A stretch of DNA of 25,990 nucleotides from a virus. Its lineage: Duplodnaviria; Heunggongvirae; Uroviricota; Caudoviricetes. The stretch is taken from positions 1 through 25,990 of IMG/VR virus record IMGVR_UViG_648276652_000014; one strand, written 5' to 3'. The notes below the pieces were generated by a model. It made no database searches, was not told where the DNA came from, and saw only the letters and a program-made list of their open reading frames with translations. Positions 4,949 to 11,991 of the stretch are shown here, one piece after another. A program made the position numbers and the translations under genes. Every line of letters starts with the position of its first letter. The first letter of the stretch is position 1.

Positions 4949-5659
4949 GTGTATGGAGCGCTGAGAAGTATGAATCAACAAGACTTGAATTTTGTCAGAA
5001 TAGAACTACGTCGTGCGCTGTTTGACTTCTCTGGGGGGACAAAAGGGCAGCTTGAGGCTTTCACTGAACACCCACCAGCAGACAAAAATGCCACTCCACG
5101 CCGTGGAATTCATCTTGTCGAACTCGAAGGTGATAAGGGACCACGCTTTGTTAACTCGCTTTCCGCGCCATTGTACGTGCAAGAAACACGTAGCCGCCCC
5201 AGGCCAATGCCGCCGATAAAAGATGTAGAATTTGAGTCCGCGCCGTGGCGTAGGGCAGTGTCCGCGCTTAGTGGATACCAGCAGGCTTGGTTGCGGTACT
5301 GTTACGGTTTTGACCTTAACTATACGCACCAGGTGATGATGTGTGAATACGTCTGGAAGGCTTATCAGAAATGCTTGGGTGAAAACTCACTTCAGGAGCG
5401 CGTAGTAAAAAAACTAATAGGCCTAGTATGGCTTGCAGGACAGGAAATTGCTGCAACCCGAAACAATGAAACCTATAAAGACTACGCTGGTGCGGCGCTG
5501 GCCCGTATGGTTAGCGTTGACCGTTCGACATGGTTGCGCGTCTATTCAGGCCACTGGGCTGGGTTAAAGGCCGCTTTTACCCAGCTTGATGAGTCTGCGC
5601 TGGCCATGGCTCTTGAATACTATGAGGATGAAGAAGCTCTCAAAGTGGGAGAAATATGA
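4949..5659 (+). CDS. Late-gene antiterminator Q-like protein (assigned by position)
   Basis: 236-aa ORF placed between the DUF968-like gene and the AT-rich intergenic region that precedes the lysis cassette, which is the position of Q/quuQ in lambdoid and Qin-type prophages. I cannot confirm the family from sequence alone. Start is GTG 4949 or ATG 4970. Confidence 0.45.
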   Translation: MYGALRSMNQQDLNFVRIELRRALFDFSGGTKGQLEAFTEHPPADKNATPRRGIHLVELEGDKGPRFVNSLSAPLYVQETRSRPRPMPPIKDVEFESAPWRRAVSALSGYQQAWLRYCYGFDLNYTHQVMMCEYVWKAYQKCLGENSLQERVVKKLIGLVWLAGQEIAATRNNETYKDYAGAALARMVSVDRSTWLRVYSGHWAGLKAAFTQLDESALAMALEYYEDEEALKVGEI

Positions 5660-5816
5660 CGTAAATTTCACTATCTCCTTCAAACGCGCTTGCAAAATAC
5701 AACAAAATAAGCCATATTGGAAGCATATTTGATATGTTGCCAAAGTTTTATAAACCCGCCGACGAGCAGGTTTTTTGATATGCGACATAACCTATAACAT
5801 TTTTTATAAAATAAAA

Positions 5817-5822
5817 TATAAT
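5817..5822 (+). promoter_or_regulatory. Candidate -10 hexamer (TATAAT) upstream of the moron ORF, within the expected late-promoter/qut region
   Basis: A perfect TATAAT lies about 30 nt upstream of the ATG at 5853, but there is no convincing -35. A second candidate is TTGCAA, a 17-nt spacer, then CATATT at 5689-5717. AT-rich sequence produces such matches by chance. Confidence 0.2.
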
Positions 5823-5852
5823 TGCTTTACCATTATCCTGTGAGTTGAGCAA

Positions 5853-6638
5853 ATGTATATATTTGAATTGACCAAACCTGGCAACTGGCTTGAAAGTGAA
5901 GACAAAGAGTGGTCTTGGAAAATAGAACGGCTTTTGGACCATCTTGAATTTGCATTTTATGAGGCTAATGTTGCATTAAATTTATTTATGCAGCAGCAAA
6001 ACAATCAAATAGAACAACAAGGGGTTTCGCAATTGCAATGGGAAAAAGAAATGCAAGAACGAAGAACCATCGAAACACTAGTTCGTGAGGAGTTAGGTTT
6101 ATCCCCTTTTGAGAATCCTGAAAACATACAATTTGAGGTGGACGCGAGGTTTAAACGAGAAAAGTGGAGTTCTGGTGAAATTCCACGTAGCCACAAACAT
6201 TGTGTGATTTTTATTTATGCAAAATCTTTTCTTTATTCTCTTGATACTATTGATAAATTTATAAAGGTTATTTCGAATGAACCTTATGCTCCTGAGTCGA
6301 TAAAAGCCCTACACGATCAGATAGGTAAAGATTTTCCTGATCTCAGAGGGGTTAGGAATTCAACTCAACACCTCGAAGATAGGGCTCGAGGGCTTGGCGC
6401 AGGGAGAGAACCGAAGCCTTTGAATCTCCAGCCTATAAGTAATACCTTCATAAATGCACCGCAAGGTGCTTTGATATTAAATAATCTGAATGGCACCAAA
6501 TTCGGGTCAACTATGTCTGATGGTCACTATGGTGAAGTGGACATTTCACCTGAATCGTTATCAAAAATGCAAAGTATTGTTCAGGGCGTTCTTGACTCGT
6601 TTAAGTGGGTTGGTAATCAGCAACACTTACCAAGTTAA
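5853..6638 (+). CDS. Hypothetical moron protein, 261 aa, with an R-N-x3-H (HEPN-like) motif
   Basis: Long ORF in a visibly AT-rich island between the Q-like gene and the lysis genes, followed by an intrinsic terminator. It contains R168-N-S-T-Q-H173 (nt 6354-6371). I recognise no other family signature. Confidence 0.65.
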   Translation: MYIFELTKPGNWLESEDKEWSWKIERLLDHLEFAFYEANVALNLFMQQQNNQIEQQGVSQLQWEKEMQERRTIETLVREELGLSPFENPENIQFEVDARFKREKWSSGEIPRSHKHCVIFIYAKSFLYSLDTIDKFIKVISNEPYAPESIKALHDQIGKDFPDLRGVRNSTQHLEDRARGLGAGREPKPLNLQPISNTFINAPQGALILNNLNGTKFGSTMSDGHYGEVDISPESLSKMQSIVQGVLDSFKWVGNQQHLPS

Positions 6639-6660
6639 CTAAACTTAATTATTCATATTA

Positions 6661-6685
6661 AGGCTGCCATATGGCGGCCTTTTTA
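6661..6685 (+). terminator. Rho-independent terminator after the moron ORF
   Basis: Stem AGGCTGCC (6661-6668), loop ATAT, stem GGCGGCCT (6673-6680): 8 bp with one G-U pair, followed by TTTT. Confidence 0.6.
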
Positions 6686-6731
6686 TTCCCTTCACTTTTG
6701 AGAGGATTCACAGCAATTAAGAGGGGGCTAA

Positions 6732-6983
6732 ATGTCCGATCCGATTTCCGGCACAGGGTTAGCTGCTGGAGTCCTGACAGGCGCTAGTGTTTATGGACTG
6801 CTGACCGGAACTGATTACGGTGTTGTATTTGGCGCATTTGCAGGGGCTGTATTCTACATCGCAACAGCAGCAGATCTGAGTTTATCGCGTCGACTGGCAT
6901 TATTTTATCGTGTCGTATATTGCCGGAATCCTGTGCTCTGGGTTGGTTGGCTCCAAGCTGGCAAACTTGACCGGATACAGTGA
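6732..6983 (+). CDS. Holin-like membrane protein, ORF A (two predicted transmembrane segments); possibly the 5' part of a frameshifted gene
   Basis: Strong ribosome-binding site GAGGGGG before ATG 6732. The N-terminal 50 aa are Gly/Ala-rich and hydrophobic (GLAAGVLTGASVYGLLTG, GVVFGAFAGAVFYIATAA). The C-terminal 30 aa in this frame look non-native. Confidence 0.5.
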   Translation: MSDPISGTGLAAGVLTGASVYGLLTGTDYGVVFGAFAGAVFYIATAADLSLSRRLALFYRVVYCRNPVLWVGWLQAGKLDRIQ

Positions 6984-7119
6984 TAAACCTCTGGATGCTA
7001 TTGGTGCCGTAATCGTCTCTGCTTTAGCCGTTAAAATCCTGACGTTTCTGAATAACCAGGATATCGGTTCGCTGGTGGCGCTTATAACGCGCCGGGGAGG
7101 TTCAGGTGGAGCTAAATGA
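6910..7119 (+). CDS. Holin-like membrane protein, ORF B; possibly the 3' part of the same gene in another frame
   Basis: Reading frame is open from 6880. It has two hydrophobic segments and a charged tail, NQDIGSLVALITRRGGSGGAK, that resembles the lambda S C-terminus (DSIGSLIKRFAAKKAG). There is only a GTG start and no ribosome-binding site. Confidence 0.4.
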   Translation: MSYIAGILCSGLVGSKLANLTGYSDKPLDAIGAVIVSALAVKILTFLNNQDIGSLVALITRRGGSGGAK

Positions 7120-7387
7120 CCCGACAGCAACTATAAATGCGCTGTTATGTGCTTGTGTTGTTATTACTCTGATGTTTTATCGTCGTGGTGATTCGCGGCA
7201 TCGTCCTTGGGTTTCACGTTTAGCCTGGCTGATTACTGTTACATACAGTGCTGTTCCGTTGGCCTATCTCTGTGGGATTTATCCCCATTCCTCATGGCCC
7301 ATTATCGTGGCGAATACTATTTTTCTTTCCGTGCTGGTGGCCGTCAGAGGCAACGTTGCACGTCTGGTTGATCATCTGAGGCACTAA
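7106..7387 (+). CDS. Holin/antiholin-like membrane protein, ORF C (three predicted transmembrane segments)
   Basis: GTG start at 7106 preceded by GGGGAGG at 7094-7100. 93 aa with three hydrophobic helices. It ends exactly where the endolysin gene starts. Confidence 0.6.
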   Translation: MELNDPTATINALLCACVVITLMFYRRGDSRHRPWVSRLAWLITVTYSAVPLAYLCGIYPHSSWPIIVANTIFLSVLVAVRGNVARLVDHLRH

Positions 7388-8001: not shown

Positions 8002-8390
8002 AGATGAGTTATTGGGCGCTCATTTTAACGTTTATTGCTTGTATTGCTGGTGGTCTTGTTTGGTCAGCGAATCACTATCATGGAAAGTTTCTGGAGGAGC
8101 AGAAGCGTGCTGACGCTGCGGAACAGCGAGCTGATTCTACTGAGGCTATCACCGCGAATGTTCTGCGTACTATGGCAATAACGAACATCATTCAGGAGGC
8201 GAATCAATATGCAAAACAGCAGATCGCACTGGAGTCACAGAGAACCCAGGAAGATATCAAAGTGGCTGTTGCGGATGATGATTGTGCTTCACGTCCTGTG
8301 CCTGCTGCCGCTGCTGACCGGTTGCGGAAGTACGCGAACAGTTTACGTGAGCATTCCGAAGACTCCACTACCAGTCAGCTTGACTTCTGA
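7998..8390 (+). CDS. Rz-like inner-membrane spanin (i-spanin)
   Basis: N-terminal transmembrane helix (WALILTFIACIAGGLVW) followed by a charged, coiled-coil-like periplasmic domain. The start overlaps the endolysin stop. Confidence 0.8.
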   Translation: MKMSYWALILTFIACIAGGLVWSANHYHGKFLEEQKRADAAEQRADSTEAITANVLRTMAITNIIQEANQYAKQQIALESQRTQEDIKVAVADDDCASRPVPAAAADRLRKYANSLREHSEDSTTSQLDF

Positions 8391-8523
8391 TACACCTGTA
8401 CCGTTTATACCCAACCCACTGACGTATGGTGCAAGTCTTGATTTGAATGTAAGTTTGTTATCCGCGTTGGCTCAATGTAATAGGGATAAGTCTGATATCA
8501 GAATCATTGATAATCAAAATTGA
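8275..8523 (+). CDS. Rz1-like outer-membrane lipoprotein spanin (o-spanin)
   Basis: Signal peptide with lipobox LLTGC and a proline-rich mature region. It starts in the +1 frame inside Rz and runs past the Rz stop (overlapped architecture). Start chosen at the internal ATG 8275 of track ORF 8209-8523. Confidence 0.75.
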   Translation: MMIVLHVLCLLPLLTGCGSTRTVYVSIPKTPLPVSLTSDTPVPFIPNPLTYGASLDLNVSLLSALAQCNRDKSDIRIIDNQN

Positions 8524-8627
8524 TGTATATTTTTATCGTCATGTAGATAACGAACAAGGTATTCCTCTGATACGTTTCGTTGAATACAGGTCATGGGTAG
8601 GCATTGCAATATCGCTTCGAAATTATC

Positions 8628-8636
8628 TGTGATAAT
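8628..8636 (+). promoter_or_regulatory. Candidate extended -10 promoter (TGTGATAAT) for the second moron
   Basis: TGnGATAAT lies about 90 nt upstream of ATG 8727 in an AT-rich intergenic region. Weak evidence on its own. Confidence 0.25.
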
Positions 8637-8726
8637 GCTCTTAATTTTGAATGTATGTATTTGGGAAAAGAGATAAAGTAATAGTCTAATTAATGGAGAT
8701 ATCCACAAAACACAAAAGGGACTATT

Positions 8727-9233
8727 ATGCGACCAGATCAATTTTTCTATCCAGATACTTTTACCTTTAATTCATCCACCTATTATGGTCAACGTGACTC
8801 ATCTAAAGGTCGATTGTATATTCCTATTGAAAGTGACTTATGTCCATTTAATATCGGCGATATCATTGTGCAAAAAATGGTCGACAGGGAAAGACTATTT
8901 GAAGTGCTTGATTACGAGGTGCAAATTAGTCTCGAGGCTGGTTGCCCTGGCTACTCACATTTGGCGGTATTGATAGTGAAGGCATTGGATGTAAAAGAGA
9001 AGCCGAAGCAGATTACGACCCATTTGACGTTTAACGGTGCTATTAATGCTGGTGGTGATTTTCAAGCCGGTAATGACAATTCGATCACAAAGAATATAAC
9101 CATTCAACAACTACATGATGCTATAGAGCATTGCAATGATCCAGAGGTTAAAAGCCTTTGGCAAAAGCTATTGGAAAATCCGACGTTTGCTTCAATTGCT
9201 TCAATATTGGCAAAAAGTGCTTTAGGACAGTAA
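8727..9233 (+). CDS. Hypothetical moron protein, 168 aa, no recognised family
   Basis: ORF in an AT-rich island between the spanins and the HNH/terminase genes. Ribosome-binding site AAGGGA 5 nt before the ATG. An intrinsic terminator follows. Confidence 0.65.
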   Translation: MRPDQFFYPDTFTFNSSTYYGQRDSSKGRLYIPIESDLCPFNIGDIIVQKMVDRERLFEVLDYEVQISLEAGCPGYSHLAVLIVKALDVKEKPKQITTHLTFNGAINAGGDFQAGNDNSITKNITIQQLHDAIEHCNDPEVKSLWQKLLENPTFASIASILAKSALGQ

Positions 9234-9242
9234 TTCATCAAG

Positions 9243-9264
9243 CCCCATTCAATATGGGGTTTTT
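9243..9264 (+). terminator. Rho-independent terminator after the second moron
   Basis: Stem CCCCAT (9243-9248), loop TCAAT, stem ATGGGG (9254-9259), then TTTTT. Confidence 0.6.
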
Positions 9265-9290
9265 ATGCTTATTACAAAGAGTTTTCTTCA

Positions 9291-9641
9291 ATGCCACCAC
9301 GAACTCCAAAAGCCTGCCGTGTTCGCGGGTGCCGCCGTACCACCACTGACCCGTCAGGTTATTGCGAAAGCCACAAAAGCGAAGGCTGGAAGCAATACAA
9401 GCCAGGACAATCCCGTCATCAGCGCGGCTACGGTTCGAAGTGGGACGTTATCCGCGCGCGTGTGCTGAAACGTGACAAAGGTTTATGTCAGTTATGTCTG
9501 CGCGCTGGTGTGGTGCGTGAGGCGAAAACTGTTGACCACATCATCCCTAAAGCGCATGGCGGCACTGATGCCGACTGTAATCTGCAGAGTCTGTGCTGGC
9601 CGTGTCATAAGGCGAAGACGGCCCGTGAACGGCTTAAGTGA
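9291..9641 (+). CDS. HNH endonuclease (terminase-associated)
   Basis: Cys-rich HNH core (CRVRGC...CESH...DHIIPKAHGGTD...NLQSLCWPCH) in a 116-aa protein immediately upstream of the terminase genes, as in HK97-like cos phages. Confidence 0.85.
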   Translation: MPPRTPKACRVRGCRRTTTDPSGYCESHKSEGWKQYKPGQSRHQRGYGSKWDVIRARVLKRDKGLCQLCLRAGVVREAKTVDHIIPKAHGGTDADCNLQSLCWPCHKAKTARERLK

Positions 9642-9667
9642 TAATAATTCTCAACTGTCTGAGGGGA

Positions 9668-9727
9668 GGGGCGGGTCAAATCTCTGCGGCCTGACGTCTT
9701 CCGGACTGCCCGCCCCATCGTTTTTTT
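9668..9727 (+). promoter_or_regulatory. GC-rich inverted repeat plus T-run between the HNH and terS genes (terminator or cos-proximal element)
   Basis: GGGGCGGG at 9668-9675 pairs with CCCGCCCC at 9709-9716, with TTTTTTT at 9721-9727. The loop is long (~33 nt), so this is not a canonical terminator. Confidence 0.3.
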
Positions 9728-9766
9728 ATACCCGCGAAAAATGAAATTTAACCAGGAGTGCCGCAT

Positions 9767-10261
9767 ATGGCTGGAACGGCGGGGCGTTCCGGGCGTCGCC
9801 CCAAGCCAACGGCGCGCAAGGCGCTGGCCGGAAACCCCGGCAAGCGAGCCCTGAACAAAGATGAACCTGTTTTTACGCCCATCAAAGGCGTTGAGCCACC
9901 GGAGTGGTTCGCAGAAGAAAATCTCCCTCTCGCCACGATCATGTGGCAACTGACAACCAAAGAACTCTGCGGTCAGGGCCTGCTGTGCGTGACTGACCTC
10001 GCGGTGCTTGAGCGGTGGTGCGTAGCCTATGAGTTCTGGCGACGTGCCGTGAAAAATATTGCCAGCCAGGGCAACACCATCACCGGTGCAATGGGCGGTA
10101 TGGTCAAAAATCCGGAGCTGACCGCCAAGAAAGAACAGGAGTCCGAGATGAGCAGCACGGGGGCAATGCTCGGACTCGACCCCAGCAGCCGCCAGCGTCT
10201 GATTGGCCTGGCGGGGCAGAAGAAAGCCACTAACCCGTTTCTGAAAATTATCGAATCATGA
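9767..10261 (+). CDS. Terminase small subunit (P27-like family)
   Basis: [27 protein letters not shown] is a typical N-terminus for P27-family small terminases. Ribosome-binding site AGGAG lies 8 nt before ATG 9767. The stop overlaps the terL start. Confidence 0.8.
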
Positions 10262-11991
10262 GCCGGAAATCTTACCCCAACGTAAATGCAGCCAATCAGT
10301 ATGCCCGTGATGTCGTGCGCGGAAAGATTGTGGCCTGCCAGTTTGTGATTCAGGCCTGCCAGCGCCATCTTGATGACCTGATGGCGGAAAAAAGTAAGTC
10401 GTTTCGTTACCGCTTCGACAAGGACCTGGCTGAACGGGCCGTGAAATTTATTCAGCTGTTGCCGCACACCAAGGGTGAGTGGGCATTCAAACGGATGCCC
10501 ATCACGCTGGAGCCGTGGCAGCTCTTTGTGATCTGCTGCGCGTTTGGCTGGGTCAATAAAGGCTCCCGGCTGCGCCGCTTCCGGGAGGTGTATACCGAAA
10601 TCCCCCGTAAGAACGGCAAATCGGCAATCTCTGCCGGTGTTGCCCTGTATTGTTTTGCCTGTGATAACGAGTTCGGCGCGGAAGTGTATTCCGGTGCCAC
10701 GACAGAGAAACAGGCATGGGAAGTCTTTCGCCCGGCGCGACTGATGTGTAAACGCACACCCATGCTGACGGAAGCGTTCGGGATTGAGGTTAACGCCTCA
10801 AACATGAACCGTCCGGAGGATGGTGCGCGGTTTGAACCGCTGATCGGTAACCCCGGTGATGGTTCATCACCCCACTGTGCCGTGGTGGATGAATATCACG
10901 AGCACGCCACAGATGCGCTTTACACCACGATGCTTACCGGGATGGGGGCGCGACGTCAGCCACTGATGTGGGCTATCACCACTGCCGGGTACAACATTGA
11001 GGGACCGTGCTACGACAAGCGGCGGGAAGTCATCGAGATGCTCAACGGCTCGGTGCCTAACGATGAACTGTTCGGGATCATCTATACCGTTGATGAAGGT
11101 GACGACTGGACCGACCCGCAGGTGCTGGAAAAAGCCAATCCAAATATTGGCGTGTCGGTTTATCGCGAATTTTTGTTAAGTCAGCAGCAGCGTGCGAAAA
11201 ATAACGCCCGTCTGGCAAACGTCTTTAAAACAAAACACCTCAATATCTGGGTGTCGGCGCGTTCGGCGTATTTCAACCTGGTGAGCTGGAAGAGCTGCGA
11301 GGATAAATCACTGACCCTTGAGCAGTTCGAGGGGCAGCCGTGCATTCTGGCCTTTGACCTGGCGCGTAAGCTGGATATGAACAGCATGGCGCGACTTTAT
11401 ACCCGCGAGATTGACGGTAAAACGCATTACTACAGTGTAGCCCCGCGTTTCTGGGTACCGTATGACACGGTGTACAGCGTCGAGAAAAATGAAGATCGAC
11501 GGACAGCCGAACGCTTTCAGAAATGGGTGGAAATGGGCGTTCTGACCGTTACCGATGGTGCGGAGGTGGATTATCGCTACATCCTCGAGGAGGCCAAAGC
11601 GGCGAACAAAATCAGCCCGGTCAGTGAGTCACCTATCGACCCCTTCGGGGCGACCGGGCTGTCGCATGACCTTGCTGATGAAGACCTGAACCCCATCACC
11701 ATCATTCAGAACTACACCAACATGTCCGATCCGATGAAAGAGCTGGAAGCGGCGATTGAATCGGGGCGCTTTCATCATGACGGCAATCCCATCATGACCT
11801 GGTGTATCGGCAACGTGGTCGGCAAAACCATTCCGGGTAACGATGATGTGGTGAAGCCTGTCAAGGAGCAGGCGGAAAACAAAATCGATGGTGCAGTTGC
11901 GCTGATTATGGCGGTTGGCAGAGCCATGCTGTACGAGAAAGAAGACACGCTGTCTGACCACATTGAGTCCTATGGGATCCGCTCGCTTTAA
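10258..11991 (+). CDS. Terminase large subunit
   Basis: 577 aa with an ATPase region (IPRKNGKS as Walker A-like, ILAFDLA) and a C-terminal nuclease region, in the canonical position after terS. Confidence 0.93.

Follow-up and report, generated by a model that had tools for sequence, protein, structure and literature searches.

The window analyzed here (the whole stretch of 25,990 nucleotides, from the caudoviricete record IMGVR_UViG_648276652_000014) contains a 261-aa ORF between the gene of the Q antiterminator and the lysis genes of an E. coli prophage, which raises the question of whether this ORF is an accessory gene acting on its own and, if so, what its protein does. Lambdoid morons consist of a promoter, a gene and a terminator inserted between phage genes, and the Q-to-holin slot classically holds conversion genes such as stx. 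A sequence-only reading of the locus had proposed a moron with a HEPN-like motif, encoding a single-gene abortive-infection or toxin RNase. Here we present the ORF as an autonomous one-gene accessory module (moron) that needs no partner. We give a probability of about 50% to the reading that it encodes a latent solo HEPN-like RNase which, by analogy with HepS, would be triggered by an infecting phage and abort the infection. The RNase, toxic and anti-phage activities discussed below are putative.

Position in the prophage

According to the ORF call on the window, the ORF starts with an ATG at position 5853, and its stop codon ends at 6638 on the + strand. The gap to Q measures 193 nt, close to the value of about 190 bp noted originally. 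A DUF968/HNH gene is located 5' of Q, and two holin genes, a GH19 endolysin gene and Rz/Rz1-type genes follow 3' of the ORF. The encoded protein has no transmembrane or hydrophobic segment and no signal peptide. The features of the region are as follows.

4949-5659, + strand: Q antiterminator gene (PF06323, 3.6e-37; phrog_304), which defines the slot
5752-5776, + strand: upstream terminator-like hairpin with T-run, matching a sequence conserved in 12 divergent copies
5794-5822, + strand: sigma-70-like putative promoter, ATAACA-17-TATAAT (10/12 matches)
5853-6638, + strand: ORF of the PHROG 5322 family, encoding a soluble, acidic protein of 261 aa (AlphaFold2 pLDDT 89.3)
6660-6687, + strand: intrinsic terminator, consisting of a stem and a T-run
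6732-7118, + strand: first holin gene (PF16931), frameshifted in the window

The locus had been described as an AT-rich island between GC-rich phage genes. The contrast is real (GC 0.34-0.42 over positions 5650-6700 vs approximately 0.50 on either side), but the flanks are of average composition rather than GC-rich. Among 36 non-identical phage-borne copies, 35 are likewise AT-richer than their flanks (gene GC 0.40 vs 0.52).

Other parts of the prophage show variation of their own. Near position 6800, the first holin gene carries a 1-nt insertion, an extra T (GGCATTATTTT vs GGCA-TATTTT in the otherwise identical loci L001 and L059), which shortens the product from 128 aa to 83 aa by frameshift and may be either a sequencing error or the first sign of decay of the lysis cassette; the second holin gene (7106-7387) is intact. 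A second AT-rich stretch (GC 0.32-0.38 over approximately 8350-8950) follows Rz/Rz1. A 168-aa ORF at 8727-9233, just 5' of the genes for an HNH endonuclease and the small terminase subunit, has no Pfam match, belongs to phrog_5789 (function unassigned) and may be another moron. In L001, the copy of the same prophage in E. coli MS 119-7, an IS100 element (IS21 family; istA and istB) at 8634-10435 interrupts a gene of the early region. Several annotated pseudogenes are also found in that copy; the element seems to be decaying, with its moron still intact.

Regulatory sequences and conservation of the slot

A Q antiterminator gene lies immediately upstream of the family gene in at least 38 of 47 viral-contig copies, and it belongs to PF03589 (21 copies), PF06323 (9) or PF06530 (8), with DUF1133 in 8 more. 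Downstream there is usually a holin gene, from one of at least four holin families, and four Klebsiella prophages show the same arrangement of Q, gene and holin. The distance from Q to the ATG is tightly clustered among the viral copies. In three Klebsiella prophages (L004, L005 and L007; approximately 5634-5895), gene callers report a minus-strand ORF of 51-86 aa in the longer gap between Q and the moron; neither the window nor L006 has it.

The 113 nt before the ATG were aligned for 13 divergent copies, whose proteins are about 55-60% identical. The -10 element, GTAATATAATT, is nearly invariant in these copies and is found approximately 45 nt after the upstream terminator and 30 nt before the ATG; in the window its TATAAT occupies positions 5817-5822. 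The upstream hairpin corresponds to the conserved sequence AAACCCGCC-N4-GAGCGGGTTTTTTT and occurs at a fixed offset in 21 of the 36 non-identical copies. Its free energy is -5.8 kcal/mol in the window vs -11.6 and -11.9 kcal/mol in L071 and L077, respectively, the window's hairpin being weakened by a G-to-A change in the right arm; transcription from the late promoter could thereby reach the gene more often.

The clean terminator reported earlier behind the ORF was recovered, with a stem of 9 bp (6 of them GC) at 6660-6681, a T-run and a free energy of -17.0 kcal/mol. A terminator is found 16-21 nt past the stop codon in 28 of 36 non-identical copies vs 87 of 595 control ORFs, and it probably closes the module and insulates the lysis genes.

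With a predicted promoter, a terminator, an odd base composition and presence or absence between conserved phage genes, the assignment as a moron in the Q-to-holin slot, with Q upstream and holins downstream, is upheld. Like classical lambdoid morons, the gene is AT-rich relative to its flanks, has a putative promoter and a terminator of its own, and occupies the slot between Q and the lysis genes. Unlike them, its regulatory DNA, including the upstream terminator, is conserved together with the gene across three Q families, and the same gene also travels on integrons and plasmids.

Family size, distribution and selection

The sequence-only reading recognised no named family for the protein, and Pfam, NCBIfam and PADLOC indeed gave no match. 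The sole library match was PHROG 5322 (function unassigned), with an E-value of 1.4e-124 and an alignment of residues 1-260 of 261 to profile positions 1-258 of 259. A word-indexed search gave 416 homologs, with 'hypothetical protein' as the source name throughout the matches listed, and an exhaustive profile search yielded at least 968 cluster representatives at 50% identity, 436 of them with E≤1e-30. Nearly all representatives are standalone proteins of 250-280 aa without fused domains.

The hosts include Enterobacteriaceae, Vibrio, Acinetobacter, Psychrobacter, Limnobacter, Chromobacterium and Desulfuromonadales, as well as Campylobacterales, Syntrophales, an acidobacterium and a distant Deinococcus branch, and members occur in soil, marine and groundwater bacteria. 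A relative from Deinococcus used as a new query returned only four close homologs and no link to an annotated family. The gene is under purifying selection, with a dN/dS of 0.22 for closely related copies and of 0.08-0.18 for more diverged ones. Few E. coli genomes have the full module (25 of 5,426 complete genomes; 25 of the 200 genomes matching the region). Among predicted prophages the family is frequent (49 IMG/VR contigs); it has no match among the 50,697 deposited genomes of isolated phages (INPHARED) or in BFVD.

No name for the family was found in the literature or the libraries searched. The family may be identical with Esos or with cassettes tested by Getz et al. (2025). The accession WP_000275196 is missing from the DefensePredictor tables searched.

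Genomic contexts and single-gene character

Clustering of 344 neighbouring ORFs from 42 genomic loci gave no neighbour family present in more than 4 of the 42, and the few that recur come from syntenic Acinetobacter genomes. Four vehicles of the gene were found: the late-operon slot of prophages, integron cassettes, mini-plasmids and genomic islands. In Vibrio parahaemolyticus (L003), the gene forms one integron cassette, flanked by attC-type repeats at 5861-5982 and 6790-6911 and starting 19 nt after attC. In the Psychrobacter plasmid pA53P1 (4,168 bp), rep, mobA and mobC are accompanied by this gene alone, which starts 9-66 nt after rep; other small plasmids carry it too. A Desulfuromonadales genome has it in a defence island, together with a 991-aa AAA_21 ATPase, an Xre-RES pair, a type I restriction-modification system and a PDDEXK nuclease, and Chromobacterium has it inserted on its own between housekeeping operons. 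Regarding the other neighbourhoods, summary counts show methylases, integrases and transposases mixed with housekeeping genes, and no quantitative enrichment in defence genes is claimed from them.

Another cassette of the same V. parahaemolyticus array, five cassettes upstream of the family member, encodes a HEPN_AbiV protein (1763-2389). Two different one-gene cassettes of HEPN type thus occur in one array, one AbiV and the other HEPN-like by its motif.

These loci bear out the single-gene character claimed at the outset: no partner recurs in the 42 loci, and the gene stands as a lone integron cassette and as the sole cargo of pA53P1. A HEPN/MNT (HepT-MntA) type II system would have an adjacent MNT nucleotidyltransferase antitoxin gene, and no such conserved neighbour occurs in these loci. 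No partner is seen even at loci too tight to hold one, which speaks against a classical toxin-antitoxin pair and implies that the protein is harmless until activated. The prophage, integron-cassette, defence-island and small-plasmid contexts fit a one-gene defence or toxin.

Conserved residues

The following features of the protein are used below.

6243-6257, + strand: D131-x3-K135, on helix 112-141, corresponding to the 'acidic-x3-[KR]' of helix 2 in HEPN domains
6354-6389, + strand: candidate catalytic block R168-N-x3-H173-x-E175-D176-R177-x-R179, near-invariant in 261 homologs
6387-6548, + strand: beta-rich insert (residues 179-232; strands in 211-230) that separates the motif from the last helix of the bundle

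The motif R168-N-S-T-Q-H173 was confirmed at nt 6354-6371 (AGG AAT TCA ACT CAA CAC). It had been presented with the caution that six residues alone are weak evidence, which remains valid for the bare hexamer, since a lone RNxxxH may occur by chance in a protein of 261 aa; its conservation in 261 diverse homologs, with identities down to approximately 30%, shows that it is not a chance occurrence. In the alignment of these homologs, R168 and H173 are each present in 259 sequences, and 260 have N (226) or D (34) at position 169. The residues that follow are similarly constrained: E/D at position 175 (260/261), D/E at 176 (254/261) and R177 (256/261), with E175, D176 and R177 each conserved to at least 93% and R179 to about 90%. 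As judged from this alignment, the R-N-x3-H motif is the most conserved feature of the family and under strong selection.

Further upstream, D131 is present in 249 of the 261 homologs and K or R at position 135 in 243, and residues neighbouring D131-x3-K135 covary with residues 165-174. A Deinococcus plasmid protein with 25% identity has kept R-S-x3-H-x-E-D-R and lost D131 and K135; loss of this feature is also seen in some HEPN families.

Predicted fold

An AlphaFold2 model computed from a 40-sequence alignment (pLDDT 89.3, pTM 0.82) is mostly helical, with a small beta region (211-230) besides helices at residues 18-81, 89-106, 112-141, 149-160, 171-178 and 233-248. Its confidence is lowest around the motif (pLDDT 67-79). 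Contacts were also derived by mean-field direct coupling analysis (DCA) from 261 sequences (Neff 184), which indicated a bundle of the helices 18-50, 112-141, 149-160 and 233-248: residues 28-44 run antiparallel to 114-133, 149-161 pair with 235-245, and residue 133 is in contact with 239 and 243. A hairpin of its own is made up of helices 69-80 and 99-103. Couplings also link 128-139 to 165-181 (Y128-T171/Q172, D134/K135-R165, F136-L174), and the hairpin 211-230 is coupled to the motif (V167-V229, V167-M221, T171-F217). In these models the R-[N/D]-x3-H...E-D-R block would fall at the distorted end of helix 3 in a four-helix bundle, adjoining the D-x3-[K/R] helix. Within the beta-rich insert, T215-D230 and G218-Y226 are coupled and G224 is present in 260 of 261 sequences; speculatively, the insert may act as a lid or sensor.

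Foldseek returned nothing significant from PDB or BFVD. As to the HEPN-like helical bundle that was to be looked for, a helical bundle with a HEPN-like placement of the motif is predicted by AlphaFold2 and DCA, and these searches gave no match to a known structure.

Relationship to HEPN domains

HEPN domains are defined by an Rx4-6H motif in which a polar residue, mostly N, D or H, follows the R (Anantharaman et al. 2013, PMC3710099). The motif lies at the often distorted end of helix 3, close to a second acidic residue on helix 2, usually as Ex3[KR]; inserts occur, and domains without catalytic function usually lose Rx4-6H (PMC3710099). The 261-aa family shows the first of these features almost without exception (R168 and H173 in 259/261 each, N/D in 260/261). 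It also has an upstream acidic residue followed by K/R (D131 in 249/261, K/R135 in 243/261), with D rather than E as the acid and with residues 128-139 coupled to the motif region 165-181. Its inserts are found between helices 1 and 2 and after the motif, whereas the usual HEPN insert is between helices 2 and 3.

A link through profile similarity was not obtained. The Pfam HEPN models had no hit among 108 family members at E≤10, and PADLOC, NCBIfam and two PDB profile searches gave no link to any HEPN family. An hhalign comparison with an AbiV cassette yielded a probability of 6.9%, which is uninformative because AbiV is an atypical HEPN protein. The predicted fold is compatible with HEPN, and the geometry of the motif in the models speaks for it; membership in HEPN is plausible but unproven. 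The sequence-only reading is partly supported: what it said of the motif, of the slot, of an autonomous gene and of the absence of any named family stands, and the HEPN RNase is a candidate.

Two other matches were discarded. A choline/aminoglycoside kinase (PDB 4r77, E 0.004) was rejected because the Brenner loop HxDxxxxN needs an invariant Asp where the aligned position 191 is N, D, K, E or A, and also because the predicted fold is helical. TALE repeats, the sole PDB matches of a profile of the core region, are an artefact in which approximately 15 repeats are summed at about 3 bits each.

Comparison with known systems

HepS from the Gifsy-1 prophage of Salmonella is a solo HEPN abortive-infection protein that is partner-free, non-toxic at rest and tetrameric; it is switched on by siphophage tail-tip proteins and cleaves tRNA anticodon loops (PMC13043305). 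Like HepS, the 261-aa protein is a single prophage-encoded protein with an Rx4H motif and without partner or antitoxin, and by this analogy it may be constitutively present but latent, awaiting a phage protein as trigger. It falls outside the HepS family as delimited by homology to STM14_3211, a standalone length of less than 250 aa and a motif near residue 100. (Note that the Gifsy-1 record NC_010392, the LT2 prophage, contained no ORF with R100-x4-H105, and that HepS is compared here by its published description.)

The integron-cassette HEPN protein 3jrt (Vpc_cass2) has 166 aa and Rx5H vs 261 aa and Rx4H here, and has neither the N-terminal helical hairpin nor the beta-rich insert of 54 residues. 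The PDB profile searches detected no sequence similarity between them; the spacing from the acid to the Arg is 37 residues in both (E66 to R103 in 3jrt). Integron cassettes are rich in one-gene defences, among which Esos (HEPN-like), AbiV and AbiU2 are HEPN defences. More generally, the solo Abi proteins of lactococcal type (AbiD/F, AbiU2, AbiV, the C-terminal domain of AbiJ) and the recently described integron defences Esos and BrcN are HEPN effectors of abortive infection or growth arrest, and the 261-aa protein resembles them in being a single protein on mobile elements. It is matched by none of the Pfam or PADLOC models of these families (the AbiV comparison being the one by hhalign given above, and Esos being compared by description only). 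The family is best filed among the solo HEPN-type abortive-infection candidates on mobile elements.

Proposed mechanism

The reading to which we give even odds would work as follows. The Q-specific late promoter would be located just after Q, with the first terminator halting its basal transcripts, and in the lysogen the gene would be transcribed from its own moron promoter, the second terminator shielding the lysis genes from this transcription. After induction, Q-modified polymerase would pass both terminators. The product would be a cytoplasmic, HEPN-like, metal-independent RNase, in which dimers or higher oligomers bring two R...H motifs together. Since no antitoxin exists, the protein would be inactive at rest, and the beta-rich insert packed on the motif may keep it closed. 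A cue from an infecting phage would open the protein, which would then cut tRNA, mRNA or rRNA, and the cleavage would stop translation and phage growth, as HepS of Gifsy-1 does.

A bolder variant is possible, if on the doubtful side: a one-protein immune sensor-effector of a new kind, spread by the four vehicles along with its own promoter and terminators, in which the conserved insert 179-232 would be a phage sensor or lid over the R/H/E/D/R site, and in which this site may merely mimic HEPN and may use a chemistry unseen in defence.

Alternative explanations

The R/H/E/D/R cluster might instead sit on a novel helical-plus-beta fold and serve a different chemistry, acting on DNA, nucleotides or NAD+, or bind a ligand; the protein would then still be a conflict or defence effector, but not a HEPN RNase, a reading that we regard as unlikely. 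It is improbable that the gene is a late product serving the phage's own lytic cycle through degradation of host RNA, timing of lysis or regulation of late genes. In at least 38 of the 47 viral contigs the gene follows Q directly within the late operon, where Q-antiterminated transcription must read through it, and the clustered spacing from Q to the ATG points the same way. Against this, the same protein occurs away from phages: it is found as an integron cassette, as cargo of small plasmids, within a defence island and singly on a chromosome; the gene has a putative promoter of its own and terminators that insulate it; and the family is absent from the 50,697 genomes of isolated phages. There is likewise only a slim chance that the protein has an accessory role without enzymatic activity, as a regulator, nucleic-acid binder or lysogenic-conversion factor, with the charged block as a binding surface. 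Its location in a slot that classically houses conversion genes such as stx would suit this role, but neither a signal peptide nor a transmembrane segment is present, and a host-specific virulence function sits poorly with a family that is found in bacteria of soil, sea and groundwater. Some domains of the HEPN clan are indeed non-catalytic binding subunits, but such domains usually lose Rx4-6H (PMC3710099), which is kept here in 259 of 261 homologs.

It is very improbable that the protein is the toxin of a toxin-antitoxin or addiction module with an overlooked small RNA or peptide as antitoxin. The idea draws on HEPN toxins being often paired with antitoxins such as MNT and on the RNA-based regulation of a phage-encoded AbiF system (PMC12373285); the small minus-strand ORF between Q and the gene in some Klebsiella prophages could be taken as a candidate. 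This ORF is absent from the window and from L006, however, no neighbour is conserved in the 42 loci, and the starts 9-66 nt after rep in pA53P1 and 19 nt after attC in the Vibrio cassette leave no room for a second gene or a conserved RNA. The latent solo RNase remains our preferred reading.

Implications

If this reading is true, the family would be a widespread, compact (261 aa) and partner-free defence family, with at least 968 clusters at 50% identity in several proteobacterial classes and beyond, that has gone unrecognised by the annotation and defence libraries searched (Pfam, NCBIfam and PADLOC). It offers a clear catalytic hypothesis in R168 and H173, and its presence in E. coli and Klebsiella prophages provides a natural experimental host. 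The 261-aa protein would be the second case, after HepS, of a prophage carrying a latent suicide RNase without an antitoxin, and would show how such a gene is wired into the Q-to-lysis slot so that the lysogen expresses it while the lysis genes stay insulated.
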